Shown here: positions 1,083 to 64,000 of the stretch, one piece after another | Position numbering within the stretch: position 1 is the stretch's first letter | Layout: each line of letters begins with the position of its first letter | Assembly: GCA_964478705.1 (NCBI GenBank) | Contig: CAYZIR010000005.1 | Coordinates: forward strand, 508 to 64,507 | Length of the DNA stretch: 64,000 bases | Source of the DNA: an uncultured Candidatus Saccharibacteria bacterium | GTDB lineage: Bacteria > Patescibacteriota > Minisyncoccia > Phycocordibacterales > EsbW-18 | Direction of reading: 5' to 3' | Position numbers and translations under genes: made by a program | The notes under the pieces: model-generated | Told to the model about the DNA's origin: nothing | Database searches by the model: none | The model's input: only the letters and a program-made list of their open reading frames with translations

Positions 1083-1388
1083 GAAGTTTCATTGTAAGTT
1101 GTGTATACGACATATTGATAATCAAGGTCTTTAAGACCTCTAATAAAATTCCTATAAAGGTTTAGACAAGACGACGTAGCAACCTTCCCTAGTTCGGGAA
1201 AGTTTTAGCAAAGAACCCTCTTCTGAGAAGACCTCAAAAGCTTGAACTTGATAATAGCAAGATACAAGCTCATGTCAATGATTACGGACATGCTATTCGT
1301 TGAAAATAAAGGACGATTTTGGCATTCTAGGACATAAAATGGTTTTAAAGGACATTCTGAATCAGCTCGTTTTATAGGATACAAATCT

Positions 1389-7474: not shown

Positions 7475-9270
7475 TTTCCGGAGCCTCCTTTCACCATCTG
7501 CAGAAACACATCGTGCGGAATGTTGACTTTCCCGCGCTCGAGCATTTTTTTCTTTCCTTTCTTCTGTTTTTCAAGAAGCTTCATTTTACGCGTAATATCT
7601 CCTCCATACAGATACCCCGTAACGTCTTTTCGCATCGCAGAAAGACTCTCAGATGCAATGATACGCCCCTTTGCTTTTGCCTGAATTTTTGTAACAAACA
7701 ATTGACGCGGAAGGACATCGTGTAACTTTGTCACCGCTTTCTTTGCCTCTTCTTCAACGATACGATTCGCTACAACGCGCGCAAAGGCCGGAACAGGCTC
7801 ATCAGCGACAAGAATATCGAGACGAACAACATCGGCATCACGAAGCCCTGTGAGTTCATACGAAATCGAGGCATATCCTGAGGTAACGCTCTTCAAGCGA
7901 TCAAAAAACCCACGCATCAGCTCTCGGAGTGGCATCGAGATGGAGAATGAGATGCGACCATCACGAAATGTTTTTGAGTCATCAACACTCGCCTCAAAAT
8001 CATAGAACGCTTGCATGAGCTGACTCATGTACTCAGGTGGAGCAATCAGATGCGCCGAGACCCACGGCTCACGGATTTTGACTGTTTGCCCGTCGTCAGG
8101 AAAAAGTGCCGGCGAGTAAATCATCTCTGTTCTTCCGTCGCGATAGGTCACTTCATAGGTAATTGAGGGGGATGTCACAACCAACGAAAGGTCGGACTCT
8201 CGCCTCAACCGTTCCGTCACAATTTCAAGGTGAAGCATTCCAAGGAACCCACAACGAAAACCGCGACCAAGTGTTCCTGATGATTCTTCTTCGTACGAGA
8301 GTGATGAGTCAGAAAGGCGAAGCTTCTCAAGTGCAAGACGCAAGAAATGCAAATCATCTTGCCCTTCTGGAAACACGCTCGCCCACACTACCGGCTTGGG
8401 TTGTTGATACCCAGGCAATGCCGGAGCAGGATCTTTGACGAGCGTAAGTGTATCACCGACGGAAACGATACCTGGCTTTTTGATACCGGTCACGATGTAG
8501 CCGATCTCTCCTGCGGTCAGAGAATCCATCTCTTTTTCTTGCGGAACGAGTACACCAACATCACCAACAATAAAATCTTCATGCGCCGCGAGAAAACGAA
8601 CTTTTTCTTTTGCCGATATTGATCCACTTTCCATACGAGCATGAACGATGATGCCTCGATGGTTCGAGTACGTGAAGTCAAACACAAGCGCCTGCGTCTT
8701 TCCTGCTTCTCCAACGTGTGGTGCAGGAATTCGTTCGATGATTGCAGAGAGAAGTTCCTCAACCCCCTCCCCCGTTCTCCCAGAAACTTTGAGCACCGAC
8801 TCCGGAGGACAATCCAACAGATCAACGATTTCAAGCAAAATATCATCCGCACGAGCGAGCGGAGAGTCGATTTTTGACAGCACGGGGATAATCACAAGCC
8901 CCTGCTCGCGAGCCATACCAAGCGTGGTAAGCGTTTGCGCCTGCACACCCTGAGTAGCGTCCACCAAGAGAATCGTGCCTTCTACAGCCTTCAGCGCCCG
9001 CGAGACCTCATATGAGAAGTCGATGTGCCCCGGAGTGTCAATAAGGTTCAGAACGTAGCTTGTAGCGTGTAGCGTGTAGTCCATTCGGACAGGGGCCATC
9101 TTAATAGTGATACCGCGCTCACGCTCCAAATCCATCGAGTCGAGGACCTGGTCCTTCATTTGGCGTCTATCAATCGTCTTGGTGTGCTCCAAAAGACGGT
9201 CGGCCAAGGTGGATTTACCGTGGTCAATGTGGGCGATTATGGAAAAGTTTCGGATGTTTTTGACGTCCAT
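7471..9270 (-). CDS. lepA: Elongation factor 4 (LepA)
   Basis: N-terminal GTPase (AHIDHGKST), EF-G-like domains, characteristic LepA C-terminal domain. Confidence 0.95.
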   Translation of the reverse strand: MDVKNIRNFSIIAHIDHGKSTLADRLLEHTKTIDRRQMKDQVLDSMDLERERGITIKMAPVRMDYTLHATSYVLNLIDTPGHIDFSYEVSRALKAVEGTILLVDATQGVQAQTLTTLGMAREQGLVIIPVLSKIDSPLARADDILLEIVDLLDCPPESVLKVSGRTGEGVEELLSAIIERIPAPHVGEAGKTQALVFDFTYSNHRGIIVHARMESGSISAKEKVRFLAAHEDFIVGDVGVLVPQEKEMDSLTAGEIGYIVTGIKKPGIVSVGDTLTLVKDPAPALPGYQQPKPVVWASVFPEGQDDLHFLRLALEKLRLSDSSLSYEEESSGTLGRGFRCGFLGMLHLEIVTERLRRESDLSLVVTSPSITYEVTYRDGRTEMIYSPALFPDDGQTVKIREPWVSAHLIAPPEYMSQLMQAFYDFEASVDDSKTFRDGRISFSISMPLRELMRGFFDRLKSVTSGYASISYELTGLRDADVVRLDILVADEPVPAFARVVANRIVEEEAKKAVTKLHDVLPRQLFVTKIQAKAKGRIIASESLSAMRKDVTGYLYGGDITRKMKLLEKQKKGKKKMLERGKVNIPHDVFLQMVKGGSGN

Positions 9271-9321
9271 AGGGTCGTTCAGTGACCCATCTTAACAGAA
9301 ATAGGCTTATTTTTCAGCTTC

Positions 9322-11058
9322 TTACATCTCCCCTGTCTCCGGAGCGATAGGAGTAGCAGTCTTCCAGAAGCGTGCTTTGATGGTTGTCGAAAATTCAACA
9401 AGCTCCTGATTGCGAAGAAGCTGTAAGGTTGCAACCCAGAAGAGAATGCCACAGACACCGGCGATGAGGCCTTCTACAAACACATGAAGCGCTTGTGACA
9501 GGTCGAAATACGGTGTGAGGAGATTGAGAGCGACGTACGATGCTCCAGCGCCGATAATCGATGCTGAGGCGCTCTGCCAAAATGTTGTATGAACCGAACG
9601 TGGTATGTGCCCGCCGAAGTCACGTCTGAATAAAATCCAAAATATCATTGCACTCGCAATCAAGCCCAGTGAATACACGAAAGCGATAACCAATATTGTT
9701 GTCCCACCAACATCGCTGATGCGAAGAAGAGATTCAAAGAAATATCGAATCATCGGTACCTGCTCAAAAATATTCCGAGCACCAAATGCCATCACGACCG
9801 TTGCAATCGATGTCGTCATAGTGATGATGAGCGGTCGAGCGGTCATACCAGCAGCGTAGTATGCTCGTACGAATAAAAGGATGATGCCGTGCGCAATCAA
9901 TGACACCAGAAAGAGTGCCAGCGCCGCTGCGGTCAAGCGCGTGTCAGCCCAATCGAATGCCCCTGACCCAAGAAGCGTGCGAACGATATGTGCACGAAGC
10001 ACCACCATGAGTGTGAGTGCTGGGAATGACCAGAATATGATGTGACGAAGTGCACTCACCAGCTGATCGATAAATGCTTCACGTTCTCCGTTTACAAACA
10101 ATTTTGAGAGTGTTGGGAATGCTGCGACTGAATATGCAACGCCAATTAACGTGAGCGGTGCCATATAGAGATTCGATGCGAAGGTGAAAATGGTCACTGA
10201 ACCCGGAGCAAGGGTTGATGCGATACCAACGAGCACGAGAAGCACAACCTGGTTGAGAGCAAGTGTGAGCGTTCGAGGAAGTGACACGGAAACCACGTTC
10301 CATATACGACGCAAATTGAAAGTGATAACGGGGCGCGGGAGAAGTCGCTCATGCACCACAACGGGAATCTGAATGAGCGCGTGGAGCAAAGCACCACAAA
10401 CGACACCCCATCCGATACCCGAGAGGCCATAGCGCGGATACAGGAAGATAATGCCAGCGATAATGCCGATGTTGTAGACAATCGGTGAAAGGGCGTAGAC
10501 GATAAACCGCCCCGAGAGCTGTGTGACACCCGCAAGAATGTTTGAGAAACCGAGAAATATCGGCGACAGCAGGAGAATCCTCGTGAGATGTGTAAACTGC
10601 TCTATCTCTGCCGAGCCGAACCCAGGATAGAGATACCGACCGAGTTGTGGTGCAAAGAAAAAGAGGAGTGCGCTCGCGAGGGTAATAAAAAATATGAAAA
10701 ACGACGTAATCTCAGAAAGAAAATGGCGCGCACGCTCCTTCCCTTCGCTCGCGATAATACTCTCAAGAAATGGAATCAGAACAAAGAGCGATACGATTGA
10801 CGCAATGGAAGCAAAAATGAAATCAGGAATACGAAAGGCGGCATAGTAGACGTCGAGTGTTGAGCCAGCACCGAAGAGATGTGCCAGCATACGATCCCGC
10901 ACCAACCCGAGGACTTGCGAAACAAGGGAGAAAATAGCAATAACATACGCGGCTGCATGCATACCGCCGATTGTCTGTGATAGAAGGGATACGATTCGAC
11001 GGACCATACGTGTCTGTGAACGTAATAATAGCAAATACAAGGCTTTCTGTAAGTACAC
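9322..11058 (-). CDS. murJ: Lipid II flippase MurJ/MviN
   Basis: 14-TM MOP-family protein with LGLVRDRMLAHLFGAGSTLDVYYAAFRIPDF signature. Start may be the internal Met at 11007. Confidence 0.85.
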   Translation of the reverse strand: MYLQKALYLLLLRSQTRMVRRIVSLLSQTIGGMHAAAYVIAIFSLVSQVLGLVRDRMLAHLFGAGSTLDVYYAAFRIPDFIFASIASIVSLFVLIPFLESIIASEGKERARHFLSEITSFFIFFITLASALLFFFAPQLGRYLYPGFGSAEIEQFTHLTRILLLSPIFLGFSNILAGVTQLSGRFIVYALSPIVYNIGIIAGIIFLYPRYGLSGIGWGVVCGALLHALIQIPVVVHERLLPRPVITFNLRRIWNVVSVSLPRTLTLALNQVVLLVLVGIASTLAPGSVTIFTFASNLYMAPLTLIGVAYSVAAFPTLSKLFVNGEREAFIDQLVSALRHIIFWSFPALTLMVVLRAHIVRTLLGSGAFDWADTRLTAAALALFLVSLIAHGIILLFVRAYYAAGMTARPLIITMTTSIATVVMAFGARNIFEQVPMIRYFFESLLRISDVGGTTILVIAFVYSLGLIASAMIFWILFRRDFGGHIPRSVHTTFWQSASASIIGAGASYVALNLLTPYFDLSQALHVFVEGLIAGVCGILFWVATLQLLRNQELVEFSTTIKARFWKTATPIAPETGEM

Positions 11059-16358: not shown

Positions 16359-16801
16359 TTGGTTTCGTATCCGAAACGCCAGTGTTTTCCTACACGTGCG
16401 GTTTTACGACGATGACAATTTGCACACCTCACATCACATTTTCCTATCTCATTCATTATCTCAGCTACAGAATAACTGTGCCGGAACATTTGAGAGATAG
16501 GGAGTCGTTTATCGGAGCGATGGTCGAAGTCTAGCACAACAATATCGTCTTCTCCACAGTCAATACAAGGATTCGCTTGAAGGTGTCGGAATATCACTTC
16601 CCTCAATACCTGCCTTTGTTTCTTGTTCCATTTCTTCGCTTTTTTAATATATTTTGTACGGTTTGCTTTATAATGGTCTTTTCTGTAGAGAGCATGACAG
16701 CTTTTACAAACATAGTGTCGTAAACCTTTATCTGCATCCTTCCAATTGAAATCATTCTCTTTCTTTCCTTCTTTGCATGTAGCACAAATCTTTGATTTCA
16801 T
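16349..16801 (-). CDS. Free-standing HNH endonuclease with N-terminal Cys4 zinc finger; its last four codons overlap the first 10 nt of tRNA-Trp
   Basis: CIDCGEDDIVVLDFDHRSDK...CDVRCANCHRRKT (HNH/His-Me finger); N-terminal CATCKEG..CKSCH. Final codons AAG GGC CTA TAG coincide with tRNA-Trp nt 1-10 on the same strand. Confidence 0.7.
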   Translation of the reverse strand: MKSKICATCKEGKKENDFNWKDADKGLRHYVCKSCHALYRKDHYKANRTKYIKKAKKWNKKQRQVLREVIFRHLQANPCIDCGEDDIVVLDFDHRSDKRLPISQMFRHSYSVAEIMNEIGKCDVRCANCHRRKTARVGKHWRFGYETKGL

Positions 16802-16814
16802 CTTTTTATTGTAA

Positions 16815-16850
16815 ATAAAAATACTCCAAATGGAATTCCATTTGGAGTAT
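16815..16850 (-). terminator. 36-bp perfect palindrome (bidirectional terminator) between rpmG and the HNH gene
   Basis: AAAATACTCCAAATGGAATTCCATTTGGAGTATTTT. Confidence 0.6.
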
Positions 16851-16868
16851 TTTTATGAAATCTTTATC

Positions 16869-17036
16869 TTATTTCTTCACCTGCTTATAGGTAACACGCT
16901 GTCGAAGCGTTGGGTCGAATTTTTTAAGTTCAAGACGGTCTTTGTTTTGCGCGCCTTGGCTTTTCTTTCCACGACGGCTGTAATAGACGTGGTCTGATTT
17001 GCTTGATTTAAGTCTGATGAGTGCGTCTTGTGACAT
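16869..17036 (-). CDS. rpmG: Ribosomal protein L33 (zinc-less form), 55 aa
   Basis: [55 protein letters not shown]; compare E. coli ..[21 protein letters not shown]. No Cys residues. Below the ORF-track length cutoff. Confidence 0.8.
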   Translation of the reverse strand: [55 protein letters not shown]

Positions 17037-17074
17037 GGAGGTATTTTAACAGATTTTTGACAGATAGCAATCAG

Positions 17075-17458
17075 TTATGAACCACTCTCGAGAAGCTCGA
17101 TGGTTCTTTTTAAAAGACTATTTGCCGTATCGATTTCAGCATGAGTCGTTTTTACAAAGCTTGTCGTTTGTTCCCCTTGAAGCATGGTGTCTAATCCAGC
17201 CTGTCTGCGCGCCCGGAACTCAGCCATAAAACTTTCTACATCATGCTGTAATGCTTGATCTTGAATATGTCCAACAGCGAGAGCATATAAAATATTGCTT
17301 TGCACACTCTGAAACCAATTTCCTCCAACCTTATGAGTTCTTTTGCCGGTCAGATCTTCTTCGGGTATCTCATCGGAATAATTTTCCAAGAGATTCCTTA
17401 ATTGTTCAACAATCTCCCTTCTCTCACCTGCTTCGGATTTGGGAATTTCAGGATTCAT
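17075..17458 (-). CDS. Hypothetical protein (127 aa)
   Basis: Start reset to ATG 17458 (GGAGGT 7 nt upstream) because the track ORF extension overlaps tRNA-Tyr. No recognisable family. Confidence 0.45.
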   Translation of the reverse strand: MNPEIPKSEAGERREIVEQLRNLLENYSDEIPEEDLTGKRTHKVGGNWFQSVQSNILYALAVGHIQDQALQHDVESFMAEFRARRQAGLDTMLQGEQTTSFVKTTHAEIDTANSLLKRTIELLESGS

Positions 17459-25570: not shown

Positions 25571-25658
25571 TTAGCTTCGGGTAAACCGAAGCTAAGCTTT
25601 GCTATTTATTGATGGCTATTTTAGGCCTCAACCAAGGGTTCAAAACCGTATCTATTAC

Positions 25659-25686
25659 TTGACTTTTCATATAAAAATGATACAAT
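25659..25686 (+). promoter_or_regulatory. Consensus sigma-70 promoter (TTGACT-N16-TACAAT) for the 25755..27271 operon
   Basis: aTTACTTGACTtttcatataaaaatgaTACAATag; shares extended TACTTGAC -35 with promoters at 43196 and 53654. Confidence 0.65.
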
Positions 25687-25754
25687 AGTCCCAGAAGCAC
25701 CTTTACAACCTGTACGAAAATTAACTCTTCCCTCTTGTGGGAAAGGAGCGGTTC

Positions 25755-26366
25755 ATGACTAAATTTACCAAGTGGTTGACTGGCGCATTCGCGGAACACG
25801 CGGTTGTCGCCGGAGGAATCGCCGCAGGAGGCAAACTTCTTCAAAGCTTAGCGGACGTAGGTGTGGAGAAGGCCGGGGAGGCAATCATGCGAAAGTTCAC
25901 AACAGAAGACAGGATGGAAGCAAACCAGCTTCTGACAAAGGCTCTCTACGATACGAGGCTGATACCACAAGAGCGCGAAGGCGCCAAGGTGGTCAACTTC
26001 TACTATGCCAACCTCGACCCTGATGGACGCGATCGATTCGAGCGTCTCGTGGGATATTCGTGGGCCGTCATGAAAGACGGCATTGGCGCGCTCGACCTCA
26101 AACAGGTCGAGAAGACCGAAGAGAGACCCCAGCAGAAGAAGGGTGAAGAACCGAAGCCGCTGAAGACGAAGACGGTCTTGATCCCCAACAACCCCCCTGA
26201 TCTTGCGTTCATGAAACACTGGACGCAAGTTGGGATGATGGGAGAAAAATTCATCATCCTTGAGCTCGACAAGCTCGACAAGTCATCGCCGTGGACCCGA
26301 GTAGTTTCCAGCGGAGAGGCAGTCATTGACTTCATCGATGGATTCACGAATGGAGAAAAGCGATGA
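25755..26366 (+). CDS. Hypothetical soluble protein (203 aa), first gene of an orphan two-gene operon
   Basis: AGGAG 8 nt before ATG 25755; GC-rich relative to neighbours; no recognisable domain. Stop TGA overlaps next start (ATGA). Confidence 0.55.
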   Translation: MTKFTKWLTGAFAEHAVVAGGIAAGGKLLQSLADVGVEKAGEAIMRKFTTEDRMEANQLLTKALYDTRLIPQEREGAKVVNFYYANLDPDGRDRFERLVGYSWAVMKDGIGALDLKQVEKTEERPQQKKGEEPKPLKTKTVLIPNNPPDLAFMKHWTQVGMMGEKFIILELDKLDKSSPWTRVVSSGEAVIDFIDGFTNGEKR

Positions 26367-27271
26367 GCACCACAAGCACAACTGCGCACCAGCGTGGGCA
26401 ACAGGCGCGACAGATCGTCAACAAGGGTGTTGGCGGTCTCGGTAAGCTCGGCGCTTTTGGGGGATGTCTCTTGGTTATTCTCTTCCTGCTTGTTTGCATC
26501 TTCATGATGTTCGCAACCGGAGGGATCGTGGGACTCTTCACTACCGCTGGTGGATCATATGCGGGCAGTGAAATCACTCAGCGCATGAGCATGAGTGCTG
26601 TCTTTGCTGTGCTCCTTCTCATGAGCGCTCCACTCGCCGCGCTCGCATTGAAATCACTTTTCGGAGTGAAGAATGCGAGACAGAGCTGGTTGGGATTCGT
26701 TGTTTCCATCCTCATGGCAGGACTCATGACATGGGGAGTCAGCCTGATTCCGATGTCTAGCCCACGTTGGGGTCAAATCGCAATGATTGGATTGTTCGTC
26801 TTGATGATTGGGGGGCTTCTCCAAATCTTCCTTGACGAAAAATTCCTACCACGACTACGAACATTTACACAGTTGGGATGGGTACTCCTTGCTGGCGCTC
26901 TCATCGTGAGTGTCGCCACATGGTGGGACTCCCGTCCAAGTGGACCAACGGGGGGAAACACACCGATTCAGCATCAATTCTCATCAAGTGCGAACTTCGC
27001 GTTCGTCTTGGAAAACGGCAAGACCATTGTGCTTGATGTCGAGGATCCGAGGTACAACCTCGACCCCGACAACAAATACGATGTGGTGTGGGACAACCCA
27101 GCATTCGGGTGCATGGAGGTGCTCTTTGCAGGGCGCCTCGTCTGCACCGACTGCGCTGAGAAGCGCGGAGAATGCAAGTATCGGCAAGACTCAGCAAAAA
27201 CGGTCTTATTCCGGCCACTGCACCGCGGGGACGTGGTGCACGTGAGCGGAATAATCACCGCACGACGTTGA
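26363..27271 (+). CDS. Hypothetical 4-TM membrane protein with Cys-containing C-terminal soluble domain (302 aa)
   Basis: Four hydrophobic helices (aa ~35-175), then soluble domain with CTDCAEKRGEC; no recognisable family. Confidence 0.55.
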   Translation: MSTTSTTAHQRGQQARQIVNKGVGGLGKLGAFGGCLLVILFLLVCIFMMFATGGIVGLFTTAGGSYAGSEITQRMSMSAVFAVLLLMSAPLAALALKSLFGVKNARQSWLGFVVSILMAGLMTWGVSLIPMSSPRWGQIAMIGLFVLMIGGLLQIFLDEKFLPRLRTFTQLGWVLLAGALIVSVATWWDSRPSGPTGGNTPIQHQFSSSANFAFVLENGKTIVLDVEDPRYNLDPDNKYDVVWDNPAFGCMEVLFAGRLVCTDCAEKRGECKYRQDSAKTVLFRPLHRGDVVHVSGIITARR

Positions 27272-27287
27272 TTCGTACAGGTAACAC

Positions 27288-27325
27288 AAAGGCCCGCGTG
27301 CACGCACGCGGGCCTTTTTTCTTTT
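27288..27325 (+). terminator. Strong rho-independent terminator
   Basis: AAAGGCCCGCGTGCACGCACGCGGGCCTTTTTTCTTTT. Confidence 0.8.
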
Positions 27326-27340
27326 GAAAGAAACCACCTA

Positions 27341-38057: not shown

Positions 38058-39128
38058 TTATCGAGAGATACTGTAGCGTCCTTGGTCGTCTTTATCGAAG
38101 TAGTCGTCGTCTTGGAGGTTTACCACAATGGTGTTCGGTTTGACATATCGTTCTTTGAGCACTTTCTCGATGATATCGTCTTTTGTCATTGGACCGTGTT
38201 CATTGAGTACTTTTTTGATGACGTCGCGGACAACTCCTTCGACATAGCCCCATTCTGAGAGCGCGTAGAGACCTCGACCAACGAGCACAAAGCGAGAATC
38301 TTTGATGAGTTCGTTGTGGGTGGTTGCAATATGTGCCTTCTTGCCGAAGAGTTCAGCGATACGCTTTGCAACTTCAGTGAAGTGAAGCGGGCTTCCGTGG
38401 TTACGGATAGCAAGATATGCGTAGTCGCGGATACCTTTCGGTGTAATTGATGTTGATTCAGATGGACCCCATTCACCGAGTGCGTTGCTACCGATCTTTT
38501 TTGAAATCGAAAGCCAACGACGAATCATTTCTTCGGTTTTGTAGTGGTCAGAAAGATCTTTGACGTGGCTGAGGAACCCAGCGATGATATCTGCCTCTGA
38601 TACAAGCTCTTCGTCAGAAAGACCTGAGTAGAGTTTCTGGATAGCTTCTTCAATTGTTTCAGCAACTGACGAGTCAACGTGCCAGCGGTGTGTAAAGTGC
38701 TCATCTTCTTTTCGTTTCTCGAACGCTTCGCCAACAACCAAGAGGAAGTGATAGTGGTTGCGTGTTGATGGATCTTTTGAGAGGTGATTCAAAAATTCTT
38801 CTTCAGAAACAATTGCACCGAAGAAGAGCATTTCTTCTTTCAACTGATCGAATACGGCGCTTTCCTTTCCGTAGACGTCAGATTTACGAATAGTTGCAAG
38901 AGCGTAGTTCTCAATCTGACGAACGCGCTCACGTGTGATGTCGTATTGTTCACCAATCGCCTCAAGCGTCATGCGCTTCACTTTGTCACCCAAACCGTAT
39001 CGTTTGATGATGACGTCGCGAGCACGGTCAGAAAGAGCGCCGAGGAGACGCTTGGTGACCTGTTTTGGGTTGCCTGAAACCGCAATTGGCTTCGAAGCTA
39101 CCTTAGTTTTTGGAGCTGGTTTTGACAT
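38058..39128 (-). CDS. Sigma-70 region-4 HTH plus C-terminal HARE-HTH domain protein (putative transcription regulator)
   Basis: N-terminal RDVIIKRYGL..TLEAIGEQYDITRERVRQIENYALATIR (sigma r4.2-type HTH). C-terminal HFTEVAKRIAELFGKK...RFVLVGRGLYALSEWGY (HARE-HTH-like signature). Confidence 0.5.
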   Translation of the reverse strand: MSKPAPKTKVASKPIAVSGNPKQVTKRLLGALSDRARDVIIKRYGLGDKVKRMTLEAIGEQYDITRERVRQIENYALATIRKSDVYGKESAVFDQLKEEMLFFGAIVSEEEFLNHLSKDPSTRNHYHFLLVVGEAFEKRKEDEHFTHRWHVDSSVAETIEEAIQKLYSGLSDEELVSEADIIAGFLSHVKDLSDHYKTEEMIRRWLSISKKIGSNALGEWGPSESTSITPKGIRDYAYLAIRNHGSPLHFTEVAKRIAELFGKKAHIATTHNELIKDSRFVLVGRGLYALSEWGYVEGVVRDVIKKVLNEHGPMTKDDIIEKVLKERYVKPNTIVVNLQDDDYFDKDDQGRYSISR

Positions 39129-43128: not shown

Positions 43129-43195
43129 AAATGGCTTTATTTTAAGGGCTAAAATACCCCTTCAGGATAGCATATCTGTTTTGCTGTCGGGGTAC

Positions 43196-43223
43196 TTGAC
43201 AAATAAATCTAGGGGTGTATAAT
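43196..43223 (+). promoter_or_regulatory. Consensus sigma-70 promoter TTGACA-N16-TATAAT
   Basis: gTACTTGACAaataaatctaggggtgTATAATgg; no ORF downstream before the terminator at 43766. Confidence 0.6.
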
Positions 43224-43229
43224 GGTCTT

Positions 43230-43797
43230 GTTGAGGTCGGCTTCGGTGAGCTTAGAAAGAAAGCTCTACGCCTTCCTTGGCATCACAGGTCGCCCCCCGG
43301 CCAGATTGTCTGCCGAGGGTCTACGCCTGCCACCGCGCCAACGGAAAAACACGGCGCCTGTTCTTTCAAAAAGGAGTCACACATTGAAGAAACGTTAGCA
43401 GTACGTTAGCCACGGAATCGTTCCGTGCTAAGGTTCCGTTCGCCTTAATCCCCTTTTAGGGAGAGAAAAGGAACGGAAACTAAACGTCGGACCAACGATA
43501 CACCTAAAATGGGTGACGGAGCTAACGATGCCAGGTGTGACTCGGCGCCGGAGATGAAAAGGGTGGCGCTGTATAAATAAATAACCCTGACTGTGACGGT
43601 AGTAGTGTTGTGTCGAATGCCGACAGAGGTTAAGACCCATCGGCAAACAGCCACGAGTGTGGCAAGACCAACAACATGAAACCGCAAAATCCTAGATCGT
43701 GCCTTACCGGTACGGCGACGGGTCGCAATATCTCCCCCCCCCACTAAATCTTACCGAAAGGAAGTGCCCCCGGCTCAACGAGTCCGGGGGTTTTCAC
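43230..43797 (+). ncRNA. Candidate ~570-nt structured non-coding RNA of unknown class
   Basis: Consensus promoter upstream, strong terminator GCCCCCGGCTCAACGAGTCCGGGGGTTTT at 43766..43794, no ORF with an SD. Internal hairpins CACGGAATCGTTCCGTG and GGTTCCGTTC...GGAACGGAAAC. Lacks tmRNA T-loop and SRP motifs. Confidence 0.4.
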
Positions 43798-43801
43798 ATA
43801 T

Positions 43802-49199: not shown

Positions 49200-49273
49200 A
49201 TATGCGTTACTCATAGTCTGTAGAAATAAAACCCACACCAGTAATCGTAGAATCAATTATACACCTAATAATA

Positions 49274-49906
49274 TTATCCGTCAAGTGCTTCATCTGCTAT
49301 CGGATACGCACCAACAAATTCTGCTGAAACAACATATCGCTCTTCTTTTGCACCAAATACGTTACACGTCGCAAGCGTCAGCATCTTCACCGAGCTACGG
49401 AGATTGATTTCGGCCTCTTCGGCATTGACCAATCCGACACTTTTGACGCGATAGAGGTATTCTTTCCCTTCTGACTGCACGCGAATCACATCATTCTCTT
49501 TGAGATTTTTCAAACCATTGAATACCTTATACGCTTGATTGTTGACGACACGAAATCCTGTTGAGTGGCCAAGGAGAAACATATTGCTCGTATCTTCAAG
49601 ATCACCCGACCCTGGGTAATGTACAACGCCCTCCATGAGTGCTGCATCAAGCGCTTCAATCGAGCGTGACACCGGATTCATAATCTTTGCGTCAACATCG
49701 ATAGCATCAATAATGATCCGAACTGGCGCATCATCATATGCCAACGGAGCTGTGGTGTCTGTCGTCGTACTCAATGATACTGAAGAGTTTTCCTGTGCAA
49801 TATCGAGTTTCGGCATAATGCCCAATGACCATGAGAGTGCAAGGAGAATTGAGAATAGAAAGAACCACGTGACACCAACCGTCACAGGTCGTTGCTGTGC
49901 AAGCAT
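49274..49906 (-). CDS. Sortase family transpeptidase
   Basis: N-terminal TM, conserved His (MFLLGHSTGF), active-site TLATC (LTLATCNVFG), Arg downstream. Directly upstream of the surface-protein gene. Confidence 0.7.
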   Translation of the reverse strand: MLAQQRPVTVGVTWFFLFSILLALSWSLGIMPKLDIAQENSSVSLSTTTDTTAPLAYDDAPVRIIIDAIDVDAKIMNPVSRSIEALDAALMEGVVHYPGSGDLEDTSNMFLLGHSTGFRVVNNQAYKVFNGLKNLKENDVIRVQSEGKEYLYRVKSVGLVNAEEAEINLRSSVKMLTLATCNVFGAKEERYVVSAEFVGAYPIADEALDG

Positions 49907-50163
49907 AATGAAACCCTCCACAGCGTAGAGTGGAGAGTTTTTCGAGATGTTTGTTGGTCGAAATACCTTCTGCATATGGGTCGTATCTAGAGAATCAATG
50001 ATATCATAATTTATATAAAAGTCAAGTATCCCCTGTATCTACCGCCACGGTACTTTTTTGAGTCATAGAGCAAACCTTGACATTGTTTTAAAATCGTATA
50101 TAATGCTCGCACCTATCGGTTTTTCGAAGCCGAGGCCATTGTTAGAGGGTTTTAGAAAATTAT

Positions 50164-51225
50164 ATGACATATCTCAATATTCAGACGTCTCAGACCAGCA
50201 AAGATACTGCAAAACAGGTTCTCCGAGGAGTCGGGGCACTTGTCTTTGTTGTTGCGATTGTATGGGTTGGCATGCAGAGCTTCCGTGTACTTCCAGGCGT
50301 TCGTCACCTCTTCGCAAATGCACTCGTCTCAGTACAGTCGTTCTTCTCACCTGAAGAGCGCATCGTTGTATCGGTTATCGACAGCCAAGTTGTTGTCGAT
50401 AAACCATTCAACATTACATGGGAACACCGAGGTAAGGAGGATCGAGGTTCATACACCATGATGTATGAGTGTCGTGACTCAGTGCACCTTGCACGTGTTT
50501 CATCAACAGGAGGAGAATCAACAATCTTCTGTAACACTGAAGTCCCTATCCTTGGAGACGAAACGAACCTTTCCCTCATTGCGCGTGGCAACGTCATCGG
50601 CGCTGTTGATGTTCCCTTCTATGTTCGCTTCACGCGAAATAATACATCGGTCATCAGTGAAGAAGGTTCTACTGCTATCCGTGTTCAAGAAATGTACTTC
50701 GATACCGGCATCGCAACATCAACCGATAGCACTGCAACAACACCCTCAACTCCATCAACACCAGTGACACCAGTTCCTGGAACCCCAACAACGGTCACAA
50801 TTCCTATCGTGACATCACCGACCTCAGATCCAAACGGTGAAGCCGACCTCTCAATTCGCATCATCGCAGTTGGTCTTGTCGATAAAAACAGTGGTTCGTT
50901 CAGCGAACGCAATGAAATTCCAAAAGACCTCCCATCAAACAAGCGTGGTGCAATCAAATTTGAGATTGAAAACAAGGGCACAAAAAAGACTGGTGACGAT
51001 TGGAACTTCTCTGCGAAACTCCCAACATCACCGTCGTACACGTACACATCGCAATCACAGCAGGACCTCTACCCTGGCGACAAGATCGAATTCATCATTG
51101 GTTTCGACAAGCTCGTGAATAAAGATGAGGCAAGCTATACCATCACGGTTGATCCGAAAGATGAGATTGACGAATCAAACGAAAAGAATAACTCAATCAC
51201 ACGCACGATCGAAATTGATCGATAA
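50164..51225 (+). CDS. Membrane-anchored protein with Thr/Pro-rich linker and C-terminal CARDB-like domain
   Basis: N-terminal TM; TPSTPSTPVTPVPGTPTT linker; C-terminal beta-sandwich pattern (ADLSIRII..IKFEIENKGTKKTGDDWNFSAKL). Confidence 0.45.
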   Translation: MTYLNIQTSQTSKDTAKQVLRGVGALVFVVAIVWVGMQSFRVLPGVRHLFANALVSVQSFFSPEERIVVSVIDSQVVVDKPFNITWEHRGKEDRGSYTMMYECRDSVHLARVSSTGGESTIFCNTEVPILGDETNLSLIARGNVIGAVDVPFYVRFTRNNTSVISEEGSTAIRVQEMYFDTGIATSTDSTATTPSTPSTPVTPVPGTPTTVTIPIVTSPTSDPNGEADLSIRIIAVGLVDKNSGSFSERNEIPKDLPSNKRGAIKFEIENKGTKKTGDDWNFSAKLPTSPSYTYTSQSQQDLYPGDKIEFIIGFDKLVNKDEASYTITVDPKDEIDESNEKNNSITRTIEIDR

Positions 51226-53521: not shown

Positions 53522-53653
53522 GAAATGAAAAAGCGCCTTTCACCGCCTCTGGCGGGATTCCGCTAAAAGCGGTGATGCGTTGTGGGTCTAGTATAGCAAA
53601 AAAGAGGTCACATTTGAAGCAAATATGACCAATTTATATGAGGTTTTTGATAC

Positions 53654-53682
53654 TTGACATTTATATTGTAATATAGTACAAT
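53654..53682 (+). promoter_or_regulatory. Consensus sigma-70 promoter TTGACA-N17-TACAAT
   Basis: aTACTTGACAtttatattgtaatatagTACAATatt; third copy of the TACTTGAC-type promoter. Followed by a ~78-nt structured leader (GAGGTGGGATACGCCATCTCAC; ACCCGGACGGGT). Confidence 0.6.
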
Positions 53683-53766
53683 ATTCTCCGTAGAGGTGGG
53701 ATACGCCATCTCACACTTTCAGAACCCGGACGGGTTCAAAGGGTCGGACGACCCAGAAAGGCAGCC

Positions 53767-54183
53767 ATGTTCCTTCATAAGAAGCAGGTACGACCGGTGT
53801 TCGAAGCTGTCCTCAAGGACTTCCCGTGGCTGTGGTCAGTGATCCACGGCGACTGGAGTAGGAAAGACTTCAACGTGCACCGAATCCTTCAGCTGGACGA
53901 CATCGAAGGGCGCGTGTCCTTCAACGAGTTGGTCCCAACGACGATCGTGGCCTACTTCGAAACTGGAGGGGTTCCACACGTTGGGGTGATCACGCCAGAG
54001 AGGCTGGTGGAACTCACATCCTGGAATCCGCCCGCGGGAGAATTCGATCGCGGAGGAATCCGGATCGCAAACATCCTCCGCGAAACATTCGCGGTCGCAA
54101 ACAACATCGTCATCGATCTCAAGGCGGTGGCGGTCACGACCCCGAACTTCTGCATCATCTGGGTTCTTGCGCCGAACAGCTGA
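53767..54183 (+). CDS. Hypothetical protein (138 aa), GC-rich orphan gene
   Basis: No recognisable family; visibly GC-rich; own promoter, leader and terminator. Confidence 0.5.
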   Translation: MFLHKKQVRPVFEAVLKDFPWLWSVIHGDWSRKDFNVHRILQLDDIEGRVSFNELVPTTIVAYFETGGVPHVGVITPERLVELTSWNPPAGEFDRGGIRIANILRETFAVANNIVIDLKAVAVTTPNFCIIWVLAPNS

Positions 54184-54190
54184 CAACATC

Positions 54191-54225
54191 GCTCCCGAAG
54201 CTCTCGTAGCTTCGGGAGCTTTTAT
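54191..54225 (+). terminator. Rho-independent terminator
   Basis: GCTCCCGAAGCTCTCGTAGCTTCGGGAGCTTTT. Confidence 0.75.
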
Positions 54226-54227
54226 AT

Positions 54228-54734
54228 CTACAATCCAATAAACATTGCCAATCCGCGCCATGAAGACATAAAATCTTCTTTTGGCATACAAAGGTTCGGT
54301 CCAACTTCTGGGTCATGGTACAAAAAACCGCGCTCATCGCTCCCGACGACAAGAACCGTGTGGTATGAACCATTGTTTTTCTTAAGAGACACGATCGGAA
54401 GTCCGTTGCGTTCATGAGATTTTCGTATTTTTTCGTATCCTTCGTTTCGCAAACGCGTTTCTTCTTCGGGATCCTTGTTTCGAAATTCTTCTCGATGCGC
54501 GGGCACGCCATACTTTTTTGCGAGCTCGATGATTACATCGTGCTTCCATCCTCGCTCACAAAACCCGCCCACTGCAGAAGCTTCATCAAGAAGTTCGTTA
54601 ATCGTTCGCCCCTCAAGTTTCCCGTAGTACGAGAGAGCCATAAAAAGATTCACGATTGTGCACGCGCGAGGACGCCATATCTCTGGGAGAGAGAAATCGT
54701 ATTGAGAAAGATATGGGACGGGCAGATTTTGCAT
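54228..54734 (-). CDS. C39-like papain-fold cysteine peptidase domain protein
   Basis: Cys in PRACTIVNLFMAL, His in YHTVLVVG, Asp in FLYHDP; peptidase_C39_2 / YvpB-like arrangement. Confidence 0.5.
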   Translation of the reverse strand: MQNLPVPYLSQYDFSLPEIWRPRACTIVNLFMALSYYGKLEGRTINELLDEASAVGGFCERGWKHDVIIELAKKYGVPAHREEFRNKDPEEETRLRNEGYEKIRKSHERNGLPIVSLKKNNGSYHTVLVVGSDERGFLYHDPEVGPNLCMPKEDFMSSWRGLAMFIGL

Positions 54735-55556: not shown

Positions 55557-57950
55557 TTAGCGCACCTCCCATCCCTTTCCGCGAATCTCATCCTCAATCT
55601 TACCCATGATCTCACTCACCTCAACATCAGAGAGCGTTTTTTCGTTCGATTGAAAGACGATGTGATATGCGTATGATGTTCTTCCCTCTTTGGTGAATGT
55701 ATCGAAAAGATCCAACCGAGCAAGAAGTTTGCCAGCATGACTTTTGATGACGCCTTCGAGATCTTCTGAGCTGTTGGTTGTTGGTTGTTGGTTGTTGGTT
55801 CCCCCGACCCATACTGCAATGTCACGAAGGATAAAAGGATAGACCGAGATCGGCGCGAATGTCATGTTTGGCAAACGTGGCAAGTCGCCGTACGAGTCAG
55901 GAGTTGGAAGCGATTTGATCGTTTTTGAAAGGGATGCGGTGGCAATGTTTGCTCGCTTCATCCATACAAGCGGAGAAGTGGAGGTCGTCGTCACTGCTGC
56001 AATTGCAGCATCAAGATCTCTGCCCTTTTCTGTCGCAATCCCAATTTGTTGTTCCTCACCAGTCTTACTAAATATGGTGCCAATTTCGAAAATTCGTACA
56101 GCATCGACGCCAATGAGCGGCCTATTTTTTTGGTTGAGCTCAAGGGCAGCCTTTAAACCTTCTACGAGTGACGAACGAAGATATTTTTTATCATTAGCAA
56201 TCGGGTTCGCTACTTCAATTTCACCATCGTCTTGAAATGAGTATGTCGACACCTCGGAAAAGCCGGCATCAACAAGCGCTCGGCGGACGAGCGCTTTGTA
56301 GTATTCGTTCTTGTTGACCGCAGGTGTGAATCCGTCGAAAGGCAACGGTGTTGATGGAATCGATTCAAGACCTTTGAGCCGGCCGATTTCTTCGATCAAA
56401 TCTTCTTTGATACGGATGTCGATGCGCGGCGCGGGAACTGTCACCACAAAGCGTGGTTCGTTGTTCGTGATGATGCGACGATAGCCGACGATATTTTCAA
56501 ATGCCTTGGAACCAGAAAGATCTTCAATGACGACTTCGCCCTTATCCCATTTTCCTGATGCATGAAGGATTTTCCCTTCACCAAGATAGATGCCGTTGTG
56601 ATCGATACCTGCCGAGAGCTTTGTCCCTGCCATGAATTCATGCGAGACACTTGTCTGACGAACTTGGTCGATACCAAGACTTTCAATATGTTCTGTCGAT
56701 CCATCACCCTTTCGATCTGAGAATACGATGTCTCCCGCACGAAGATCATTTGCCTCAACCGGCGCACTAAAAACAAACTGATCAACAGCCATACGCGGAA
56801 TTGCGATTCCAGCTTGTGCGTAGAGATATGCGACCAAAGATGAGCAGTCGAAAGCTCTTGGCGCATCACTCAAAACACTTGCACCGTATTTGTATGGAGC
56901 GCCAACCAAGGTTGGAGCAAGTTTCAAAATCTGTTCAAGCGGCTGTATGTAGGTGTATTCAAAACCAAGACGCTTGAAGTAGTCTTCGACCTCACTTTGA
57001 GAACACGTCGTGCCGAGCGCTGTGTTAATTTCCGAAAGTGAGACGCCAACAACGTAGAGATTCTTTTTGTTTGGATACGACTCAACAATGTCTTGTGCGA
57101 CTTTTCCATTCGCGAGCTCTTCAATGAGTGCCGAAAGACGCTCCATAGCAATCGCAGTAAGTTCAGGACTGATTCCCTGCTCGAATCGGATTGACGCATC
57201 GGTGCGAAGTCCGAGCTTCTTTGATGTCTTGCGAATGTTTACGGGATCAAAATTGCAGACCGAAAGAACGATGCGTGTCGTGTTCGCATCAATACCCGAT
57301 GTCGAACCGCCTTTTACGCCAGCAATATCGAGTGCTTTCTCGCTGTCGCTGATAACAAGAACGTCTGGGTTCAGTACGAATTCCTTACCATCAAGGGTGG
57401 TGATTGTTTCATCTTCTTTTGCTGAACGTATTGAAAGAGCTGTTGGTTGTGAGTTGTTGGTTGTGAGTTTGTCATAGTCGAATGCGTGAACCGGCTGACC
57501 TGTTTCGAGCATCGTGAGGTTCGTTGCATCAACAACGTTGTTGATCGAACGCTGTCCGTGTGCAGCAAGTTTTATTTTGAGCCATTCGGGAGATTCGCCG
57601 ATTGTGACACCTTCGACATAGCGCTTCATTGCGCGTGGAACGAGCTTTGAGTTTTCGATGGTAAGCGAAAGATGATCGCTTGTTGAAATACCTGAGTCGG
57701 TTTTTGGATGAGCCTCAGGAATGTTTGCTGTGACATTGAGAAGCGCGGCGACTTCACGAGCGATACCGTGGTATGAAAAACCATCGTGGGAACGGTTTGG
57801 AAGCACTTTGATATCGAGAATCGTATCGCTGCCGTGTGACTCGGTTCCGTCGATTTCAAATGCATGCATCGTAATCGTGCGCGACAAATCAGCAACCGAT
57901 GGAAGCGGTTTGTCGAAATATTCCTGAAGCCATGCGTAGGAGAATTTCAT
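55557..57950 (-). CDS. pheT: Phenylalanyl-tRNA synthetase beta subunit carrying an inserted NlpC/P60 domain and two in-frame microsatellite insertions
   Basis: B1 and B3/4 (..PEWLKIKLAAHGQRSINNVVDATN..), B5 (..VEDYFKRLGF..), B6/7 (..VTVPAPRIDIRIKEDLIEEIGRLKG..), FDX-ACB C-terminus. aa ~340-490 (nt ~56481..56933) carry APYKYGAS..FDCSSLVAYLY..AGDIVFS..HNGIYLGEGKILHAS. Repeat-coded peptides TTNNSQPT (nt 57441..57464) and GGTNNQQPTTN (nt 55770..55802). Confidence 0.85.
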   Translation of the reverse strand: MKFSYAWLQEYFDKPLPSVADLSRTITMHAFEIDGTESHGSDTILDIKVLPNRSHDGFSYHGIAREVAALLNVTANIPEAHPKTDSGISTSDHLSLTIENSKLVPRAMKRYVEGVTIGESPEWLKIKLAAHGQRSINNVVDATNLTMLETGQPVHAFDYDKLTTNNSQPTALSIRSAKEDETITTLDGKEFVLNPDVLVISDSEKALDIAGVKGGSTSGIDANTTRIVLSVCNFDPVNIRKTSKKLGLRTDASIRFEQGISPELTAIAMERLSALIEELANGKVAQDIVESYPNKKNLYVVGVSLSEINTALGTTCSQSEVEDYFKRLGFEYTYIQPLEQILKLAPTLVGAPYKYGASVLSDAPRAFDCSSLVAYLYAQAGIAIPRMAVDQFVFSAPVEANDLRAGDIVFSDRKGDGSTEHIESLGIDQVRQTSVSHEFMAGTKLSAGIDHNGIYLGEGKILHASGKWDKGEVVIEDLSGSKAFENIVGYRRIITNNEPRFVVTVPAPRIDIRIKEDLIEEIGRLKGLESIPSTPLPFDGFTPAVNKNEYYKALVRRALVDAGFSEVSTYSFQDDGEIEVANPIANDKKYLRSSLVEGLKAALELNQKNRPLIGVDAVRIFEIGTIFSKTGEEQQIGIATEKGRDLDAAIAAVTTTSTSPLVWMKRANIATASLSKTIKSLPTPDSYGDLPRLPNMTFAPISVYPFILRDIAVWVGGTNNQQPTTNSSEDLEGVIKSHAGKLLARLDLFDTFTKEGRTSYAYHIVFQSNEKTLSDVEVSEIMGKIEDEIRGKGWEVR

Positions 57951-63096: not shown

Positions 63097-63381
63097 TTAT
63101 TTTTCCTCCGATTCAGTCTTCTTAGGAGACTTTTTGGCGGCGCGCTTGGTTGCGGTTGCTTTAACAGCTTCGCGCTTGCCAGCTGCGGTTGCCTGAAGGT
63201 TCTTGAATTTCTCAAGGCGTCCCGCGAGAATCTTTTTACTGTCGTCACCGACGTAAAATGGATGACACGATGAACACACCTCGATATCGAGTTTCTCCAT
63301 CGTCGAGCCGACAGTAAAGGTGTTACCACAGGCACACTTTACGGCCGCTTGATAGTATTTCGGGTGGATATCTACTTTCAT
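63097..63381 (-). CDS. rpmE: 50S ribosomal protein L31 (with Lys/Ala-rich C-terminal extension)
   Basis: [45 protein letters not shown] (Cys4). Start at ATG 63381. Confidence 0.8.
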
Positions 63382-63424
63382 AAGGAGCCCATGATACAAC
63401 AGGAAAACCTTATCTGCAAGACTT

Positions 63425-64000
63425 TTAGAGAGCTTGAATATAGGCTCGTGTGATCGGCCCAAAGAATCCGACCGCAGGAGTGATGCCGACCGCTGTTTGG
63501 AATTCTGCCAATGCAGCTTGGGTGAGCGGGCCAAAGTATCCTGTAGCTCCATTTGACGCCAGAGTTTGTGCCTTTGGTCCTTTATTTTGAGCAATAAGGA
63601 AAAGCTGGAGCGTTCGGACATCATCACCGATATCACCAAGGGTGAGGTTGCGGGTGTAGGTGAAGTCGGAGGATGAATCTGATGTATCTTCGAGATATTT
63701 TTCTGCGCCCGCCGGGACTGTGCCACCAGCAAGAACGAGCTCAAGGAGAAGCTGTTTCAGTTTTGCGATCAGTGCAAAGAGATTGAATCCTCCCGAGCTT
63801 CCTCGTATAGGTTTGTTGTGCGAACCACTGCTTCCCCCTCCATCATTATCTTCTTCCGGCGCTGGTTCCTCATCATCTCCACCAATTGCGCTTCCGTCGT
63901 CAAAAAGAATGAAGTATCCAAGACCATAGGCGCTCTCCTCACTGGCGAAGTTGCCGCTGAAGTACAATTCAGTCTCGTTGGCAGGAAGACCGATTGCGCT
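63425..64000 (-). CDS. Peptidoglycan-binding (PG_binding_1) domain protein, 5' end beyond window
   Basis: LTLGDIGDDVRTLQLFLIAQNKG...GYFGPLTQAALAEFQ matches the PGBD consensus; the reading frame stays open from the annotated Met at 63967 to the window edge. Confidence 0.5.
   Translation of the reverse strand, partial: SAIGLPANETELYFSGNFASEESAYGLGYFILFDDGSAIGGDDEEPAPEEDNDGGGSSGSHNKPIRGSSGGFNLFALIAKLKQLLLELVLAGGTVPAGAEKYLEDTSDSSSDFTYTRNLTLGDIGDDVRTLQLFLIAQNKGPKAQTLASNGATGYFGPLTQAALAEFQTAVGITPAVGFFGPITRAYIQAL

Follow-up and report, generated by a model that had tools for sequence, protein, structure and literature searches.

Three near-consensus promoters of accessory units in a 64-kb chromosome segment of an uncultured patescibacterium are probably independent sigma-70/sigma-A promoters of a wider class

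Introduction

What does it mean when three promoter-like sites on one chromosome look almost the same, but stand in front of genes that have nothing in common? The question is raised by a stretch of 64,000 nucleotides of chromosomal DNA from an uncultured bacterium (contig CAYZIR010000005.1), which was analysed as a whole and is called the window below. In the original prediction, three near-identical consensus promoters were proposed to drive the three most unusual transcription units of the window: an orphan operon (unit 1), an RNA without an open reading frame (unit 2) and a GC-rich orphan gene (unit 3). The corresponding promoters are here called s1, s2 and s3. No other gene of the window was thought to possess such a promoter, and the units were proposed to be co-acquired or co-regulated accessory units, possibly linked by a mobile promoter cassette.

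The window stems from an ultra-small bacterium of the Paceibacterota (Parcubacteria) type, a group of the CPR/Patescibacteria, and encodes translation functions (ValRS, LepA, a short IF2, LeuRS, PheST, S2, EF-Ts, RF1 and L31), together with MurJ, ribonucleotide reductase, ClpB, GyrA, GyrB, YchF, a DUF5671 protein and T4SS_pilin-like genes. Ten tRNA genes are scattered across it. Among GTDB species representatives, the closest GyrB (88% identical) is encoded on a contig designated L003, while all other matches (~70%) are MAGs of the Paceibacterota, Zambryskibacteria or Nomurabacteria type. The same genome is present in the Logan assemblies SRR16481182, -83, -86 and -87.

The domain composition of three proteins of the window was noted. 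The PheRS beta chain (797 aa, 55557-57950, minus strand) has its B3_4 and B5 domains separated by an inserted NlpC/P60 cell-wall hydrolase domain (residues about 350-421), an unusual fusion. In a 356-aa protein encoded within the LeuRS/DUF5671 gene string (38058-39128, minus strand), an N-terminal sigma-70 region 4 is joined to a HARE-HTH domain, and region 2 is missing; instead of acting as a sigma factor, this protein may have an accessory role in transcription. In the L31-containing ORF (63097-63744, minus strand; 215 aa) the L31 domain is confined to residues 122-182; either the protein is extended by a long stretch at its N-terminus or the start codon was placed wrongly.

Results

Three predicted promoters of the housekeeping type

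The motif TACTTGAC-N15-18-TAYAAT matches the window three times, exactly where predicted and always on the plus strand (s1, s2 and s3; Table 1), as compared to no match in 100 dinucleotide shuffles. As expected of sigma-70/sigma-A promoters, each site is intergenic and points towards the unit that had been named; each of these units is closed by an intrinsic terminator. The hexamers fit the same type: the -35 elements agree with TTGACA in 5-6 of 6 positions, and the -10 elements resemble TATAAT and include the A of its second and the T of its sixth position. With 16, 16 and 17 nt, respectively, the spacers fall within the range of 16-18 nt known for sigma-70 promoters. The site s3 reaches 11 of 12 consensus positions. 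For s1, transcription is predicted to start at about 25693.

A perfect 8-6-8 palindrome, ATATTGTA-N6-TACAATAT (53663-53684), covers the spacer and the -10 box of s3 and could be an operator. No second copy of it was found anywhere in the window.

Table 1. Location of promoters, payloads and the unit 1 terminator in the 64-kb window
Feature	Position	Strand	Elements	Downstream gene
s1	25656..25686	+	TAC + -35 TTGACT (25659-25664), 16-nt spacer ending TGa, -10 TACAAT (25681-25686)	
s2	43193..43223	+	TAC + TTGACA (43196-43201), 16-nt spacer, TATAAT (43218-43223); 12/12 match	
s3	53651..53682	+	TAC + TTGACA (53654-53659), 17-nt spacer, TACAAT (53677-53682)	
s4	49998..50028	-	TACTTGACT-N16-TATCAT (TAC + TTGACT, 16-nt spacer ending TGa)	sortase gene, 49975..49274
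s5	50077..50104	+	TTGACA-N16-TATAAT, 12/12 match	CARDB-domain protein, 50164-51225
s6	49256..49284	-	TTGACG-N17-TATAAT	1168-aa PKD-like surface protein
s7	1251..1278	-	TTGACA-N16-TATTAT	secreted Asp-rich repeat protein
Unit 1 payload	25755..27271	+	203 aa (25755-26366) and 302-aa multi-pass membrane protein (26363-27271)	
Unit 1 terminator	27288..27327	+	13-bp GC-rich stem, then UUUUUUCUUUU, z = -4.4	
Unit 2 payload	43230..43795	+	ORF-less predicted transcript of about 570 nt, filling the YchF-DUF5671 gap	
Unit 3 payload	53689..54223	+	leader, 138-aa ORF (53767-54183), terminator (54191-54219 + UUUU)	

Four further near-consensus promoters and the housekeeping genes

The three sites are not the only ones of their kind, and the supposed absence of such promoters from all other genes of the window did not hold. 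Four copies of the octamer TACTTGAC are present, all of them promoter-like, the fourth being s4; three more near-perfect sites of the TTGAC type (s5, s6 and s7) lie elsewhere in the window. Each of the seven sites is situated between genes in the proper orientation, either 20-130 nt from a start codon or as the first element of a terminator-bounded unit. Five sites of the window agree with the consensus in 11 or all 12 positions, whereas 60 first-order Markov simulations yielded a mean of 0.77 (maximum 3). The gene downstream of s6 extends from a probable ATG at 49214 to 45750. The protein downstream of s7 starts with an ATG at 1113, runs off the window start and is composed of Asp-rich DxDxDG…DNC repeats, which by eye resemble thrombospondin type-3 repeats.

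The sortase and CARDB genes form a pair located 3' of gyrB, with divergent consensus promoters placed back to back (49998-50104 in the window; likewise in L005, L073 and L077). This divergent arrangement is kept in many Paceibacterota.

The best candidate promoters of housekeeping genes (gyrA/B, aminoacyl-tRNA synthetases, IF2, ClpB, the rpsB-tsf-prfA-L31 cluster and most tRNAs) look different, combining a good -10 box (TATAGT, TATACT, often with TG) with a poor -35 element. The rarity of the full consensus at housekeeping genes refers to the 64 kb of this genome and the gyrB neighbourhoods of relatives.

A clade-wide consensus and the TAC triplet

A set of 39 sites of the form TTGAC.-N16/17-TA.AAT was collected from about 1.3 Mb of sequence of relatives. 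The base preceding TTGAC was C in 21 of these 39 promoters (background 0.196) and the second base before it A in 18, while T occupied the third position in 14 and was not preferred. Judged from these sites, C before TTGAC is a clade-wide preference, A less clearly so, and T is not. Many relatives repeatedly use TTGACTTTT as a variant of the -35 element, frequently with TGn-TAnnnT behind it. Taken together with the C and A preferences, this recurrence marks AC-TTGAC, a T-rich spacer start and TGn as traits of strong promoters throughout the clade. From the window and about 1.4 Mb of relatives, (A)C-TTGACW, 16-17 nt, (TGn)TAyAAT is usable as a working consensus.

What was found downstream of the consensus promoters of relatives bears on the proposed link to unusual units. 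Of 20 ORFs tested, 13 had no Pfam family and three were CARDB/PKD proteins, and several further consensus promoters head sortases. Ordinary-looking genes were limited to those of MreB, a UPF0114 protein and ThrRS, the last at a distance of 177 nt. The association with odd units is therefore present, but it is general in these genomes and not special to the three loci. Two consensus promoters of relatives (L029, 15402, minus strand; L051, 10702, plus strand) precede tiny terminator-bounded units of about 110 nt and with a 44-aa hydrophobic peptide, respectively, which are candidates for small RNAs or micro-proteins.

The triplet TAC precedes TTGAC in four of the seven window promoters, while clade frequencies predict ~9% for each of them; the nominal P value of ~2e-3 is our own post hoc arithmetic. 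The sortase promoter of L003 has CAC in place of TAC, and upstream of the s1 homologues AAC, CAC or CAT is found. Since the T is absent from these orthologous promoters, we treated it as a species-level quirk. On sequence grounds, the TAC excess, that is, the T beyond the clade consensus, may be such a quirk or a sign of something shared.

Co-regulation of the units would be one way of sharing. A dedicated factor (an alternative sigma factor, an activator or a repressor) that reads TAC-TTGAC promoters as a regulon would fit the frequency of TAC, the stretch TTGAC(T/A)TTT(c)ATAT common to s1, s3 and s4, and the palindrome over the s3 -10 box. We consider such a regulon quite unlikely, however. 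The T is lost in the orthologous promoters, the spacer of the s1 homologues is unconserved save for positions contacted by RNA polymerase, the palindrome is found at s3 and nowhere else in the window, both the hexamers and the distance between them fit the housekeeping sigma factor, and sequences of the TTGACTTTTATAT type are found repeatedly in genomes of the clade that are unrelated. Beyond the RNA-polymerase contact positions no motif is shared by the promoters, which speaks against the common regulator of the original prediction. A shared operator was likewise rejected, as the spacers differ between the sites, the palindrome is single and the spacer varies among the s1 homologues.

Four of the promoters are conserved together with their genes

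To what extent the promoters belong to their genes can be seen from the relatives. The 203-aa protein of unit 1 has a small family: an exhaustive HMMER search of 1.84 billion representatives led to P0002-P0005, with 39-43% identity. No relative of this family was found in IMG/VR. The unit 1 homologues lie on contigs of 51-57% GC, and the contigs of P0002-P0005 (L083, L087-L091) all carry an s1-type promoter. In six contigs with the 203-aa gene (the window and contigs of four homologues, with five homologous genes from other metagenomes), every aligned position of TTGACTTTT-N10/11-TGATAnAnT that is specified in this motif is invariant, whereas the remaining upstream sequence has a mean identity of 52%. 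Thus, the core of s1 is kept as TTGACTTTT…TGATAyAaT although the protein has diverged to ~40% identity, which indicates that the promoter stayed with its gene. In L088 the 203-aa homologue is followed by a second gene of about 320 aa and then by convergent T4SS_pilin genes, as in the window. Between this second gene and the 302-aa protein of the window no similarity was detectable.

Two details of the s1 region were noted in passing. In the 5' UTR of the 203-aa gene (25715-25757) a TTCCC…GGGAA hairpin abuts the Shine-Dalgarno sequence GGGAAAGGAGC, and the hairpin is also present in the distant homologue L091 (about 225-264). Directly after the -10 box, TCCCAGAA is common to s1 of the window, L088 and L089.

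A similar conservation was observed for the surface-protein genes. In L003 the sites s4, s5 and s6 are conserved with the sortase, CARDB and 1168-aa genes, the orthologous sortase promoter being cacTTGACTTTTGTACAAAATATGATATCAT. Among sortase homologues of relatives, 13 of 16 have a TTGAC[AT] -35 element. At orthologous positions s1 and s4-s6 were thus found conserved, whereas s2 and s3 have no orthologous locus. Because s1 and s4-s6 are conserved with their genes in other genomes, these promoters are old and gene-linked, and were not recently copied. As a side observation, the sortase ATG is located 6-13 nt after the -10 box in L005 (16451), L032 (8642), L034 and L077 (10935); judging by this distance, sortase mRNAs may be leaderless in several relatives.

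Comparison of the promoter regions with each other gave no indication of a cassette. In a MAFFT alignment of six promoter regions with 70-100 nt of flank, nothing was shared outside about -38 to -7, and since the similarity is limited to this interval, the mobile promoter cassette that had been suggested finds no support. By blastn, units 1-3 have only chance 9-11-mers in common. A mobile or duplicated promoter, of which copies came to stand before unrelated payloads, would be in line with the 8-nt identity that extends beyond the hexamer at four sites, with the non-homologous payloads and with the variability of the unit 2 and unit 3 loci between close relatives. But the identity comprises ~31 nt, mostly at consensus positions, between dissimilar flanks, and other genomes show s1 and s4 to be passed on along with the genes they precede. 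Furthermore, neither flanking or boundary repeats nor att-like duplications of neighbouring tRNA genes were found at the units, and the ORFs that were scanned against Pfam yielded no transposase or integrase domain. A copied promoter segment is thus very unlikely. An origin of the units from a phage or mobile element was also rejected, as there was no PHROG match and neither the unit 2 DNA nor the 138-aa protein had a counterpart among 50,697 phage records.

Protein-coding payloads of units 1 and 3

The unit 1 operon has a leader of about 60 nt and is convergent to the T4SS_pilin-like gene cluster. Neither the 203-aa nor the 302-aa protein has a Pfam or PHROG match. In unit 3 a leader of about 80 nt (53689-53766) with three hairpins (z = -3.1), for which no Rfam family was found, precedes the 138-aa ORF. 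The terminator begins 8 nt past the stop codon and forms a perfect 12-bp stem (z = -5.9).

Public gene calls place a different gene here, an antisense 141-aa ORF (53836-54261, minus strand) overlapping the C39 peptidase gene; as a result, the 138-aa protein is missing from protein collections. The 138-aa ORF has GC1/2/3 values of 0.58/0.39/0.74, a coding-type periodicity with a foreign GC3. Its GC1/GC2 of 0.58/0.39 is typical of the genome, as compared to 0.66/0.42 in the antisense ORF. Based on these values, the promoter, a possible ribosome-binding site (GAAAGG) and the terminator, the plus-strand ORF is the more credible one. No homologues were found for either ORF, and the single-sequence AlphaFold model of the 138-aa protein (pLDDT 45) was not usable. 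The "orphan" label applies to the 138-aa ORF, which has no detectable homologues, but not to the 203-aa gene with its family P0002-P0005. In the region upstream of gyrB, where the window has unit 3, L003 has another ORF of 91 aa, divergent from gyrB and with its own cacTTGACA-N16-TACACT promoter.

The GC3 values of the 138-, 203- and 302-aa genes (0.74, 0.64 and 0.60, respectively) are the three highest among 53 genes (mean 0.48, sd 0.07). As GC3 is low in rpsB (0.38) and tsf (0.42), the high values of units 1 and 3 do not reflect expression-linked codon bias. At the level of base composition, this suggests that the two units were acquired. Collinearity between the window and L003 breaks down precisely at two flagged places, unit 2 and unit 3. 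The accessory nature proposed for the units is thus supported by the top GC3 of units 1 and 3, by the unrelated DNA of L003 at units 2 and 3, and by the possession of an own promoter and terminator.

The ORF-less unit 2 occupies an insertion hot spot

Unit 2 ends with the hairpin CCCCCGG…CCGGGGG followed by UUUU (43766-43795), and public assemblies have no gene call in this place. None of the frames shows coding periodicity, the GC content being flat across codon positions. A 50-aa GTG ORF with a GAGG ribosome-binding site is located at 43246 and is a possible product. The predicted transcript is GC-enriched relative to its surroundings and predicted to be multi-branched (folding z = -4.0, with the same value for the minus strand). 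On these sequence features unit 2 is a candidate for a structured non-coding RNA.

Searches for relatives of unit 2 were negative throughout. At the Rfam 15 gathering threshold tRNAs alone pass in the whole window, and at E-value thresholds units 2 and 3 gave no match. The best Rfam match in the gap, RAGATH-36, lies on the opposite strand and reached 19.8 bits against a threshold of 70. Using blastn against 80 relatives, unit 2 found itself only, and the same was true for a single-sequence covariance model of a 135-nt five-way junction (43393-43527) run against 1.39 Mb of relatives. Scans of IMG/VR with k-mers yielded chance hairpin matches only. A metagenome scan with DUF5671 retrieved distant relatives alone (32-46% identity) and no unit 2 match; these relatives are informative on the ancestral state of the junction.

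The genes on both sides of unit 2 are well conserved in L003 (YchF 98% and DUF5671 89% identical), where the gap (16434-17133) contains a HAD-hydrolase gene in place of unit 2. The inserts of the window (43129-43801) and of L003 are both about 700 nt long and unrelated. We rejected the idea that unit 2 is a decayed HAD gene, as the two were not similar by tblastn and their global alignment scored the same as shuffled sequences. In the more distant relatives L092 and L094 the gap measures 33-34 nt. L093 has an insert of about 970 nt (9031-10003), which contains inverted repeats, a second copy of the YchF 3' end and an ORF that by eye resembles a TrpR/YerC-type regulator. These differing contents across relatives identify the YchF-DUF5671 junction as an insertion hot spot.

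The promoters of units 2 and 3 could also be real while the payloads are decaying remnants of inserted DNA without present function, unit 2 being neither a gene nor a functional RNA, and in this case the lack of homologues of both units in the searched collections, the equal folding of unit 2 on both strands and the pLDDT of 45 for the 138-aa protein would be expected. Intact s2 and s3 promoters (12/12 and 11/12), clean terminators, an uninterrupted 138-aa ORF with typical GC1/GC2, and identical sequences in independent metagenome assemblies (two checked for unit 2, four for unit 3) speak against decay. We regard the remnant explanation as unlikely.

Discussion

The data presented here are best explained if s1, s2 and s3 are independent promoters of the housekeeping sigma-70/sigma-A type, which resemble each other because all of them come close to the consensus of their clade, and if the units behind them were probably acquired. 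We hold this explanation to be probable. The clade consensus would be about (A)C-TTGAC(A/T), a 16-17-nt AT-rich spacer, which often starts with TTT and often ends with TGn, and TAyAAT. Within the window, the three sites would be members of a larger class that comprises at least seven promoters. Full-consensus promoters would serve two groups of genes: envelope and secreted proteins (sortase, CARDB protein, PKD-like giant and Asp-rich repeat protein), and small lineage-specific modules consisting of promoter, payload and terminator, to which the flagged units would belong. The latter are probably horizontally acquired or fast-turnover modules, with constitutive strong expression from their own promoter. 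We infer initiation by RNA polymerase at the predicted sites, the strength of the promoters, the acquisition of the units and the role of unit 2 as an RNA from the DNA sequence.

Taken one step further, units 2 and 3, and perhaps unit 1, might be enzyme-free modules of gene flow in which promoter, payload and terminator enter hot spots together, with unit 2 as a new non-coding RNA. Such modules would represent an undescribed currency of gene flow in CPR bacteria, but we rate the idea as improbable. Under the preferred explanation of independent housekeeping promoters, current understanding of transcription remains unchanged. A rule of thumb nevertheless emerges for these genomes: the full consensus marks sortase and surface genes and small lineage-specific units, while core genes mostly have to rely on a -10 box. 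The consensus may therefore aid the annotation of small genes and RNAs that are missed or strand-swapped, as at 53.8-54.3 kb, and the candidate strong promoters are possible genetic tools for CPR bacteria, which are hard to manipulate. A literature search found no published work on promoter architecture or non-coding RNA of CPR/Patescibacteria. The lead left after this analysis is unit 2, bracketed by promoter and terminator and located at an insertion hot spot, with no relatives in the collections searched.

Unit 2 has several properties in common with large non-coding RNAs of the OLE, ROOL, GOLLD and raiA type, as it is about 570 nt long, ORF-less, GC-enriched, predicted to be multi-branched and bounded by an own promoter and terminator. 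In contrast to these RNAs, it has no match in Rfam 15 and no homologues for covariation, and its fold signal is blind to the strand.

Genomic islets or ORFan cassettes are comparable in that units 2 and 3 replace different DNA in L003, are atypical in composition and bring their own promoter and terminator. They differ by the small size of the units (0.55-1.7 kb) and by the lack of an integrase, a transposase, flanking repeats or a tRNA-att duplication.

Putative mobile promoters likewise present as similar promoters in front of non-homologous genes. They are, however, defined by long, highly identical upstream segments, whereas the identity observed here covers ~31 nt at consensus positions and at least two of the promoters are vertically inherited.

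The closest correspondence is to sigma-70/sigma-A promoters. Shared with this type are hexamers resembling TTGACA and TATAAT and separated by 16-17 nt, the extended -10 motif TGn of s1 and s4, the position ahead of discrete transcription units and a preferred C directly before the -35 element; compilations of E. coli promoters display a similar preference ('tcTTGACat'). What sets the present promoters apart is that the TAC extension is over-represented in this species, and that the full consensus is found mainly at envelope genes and orphan units and not at translation genes.
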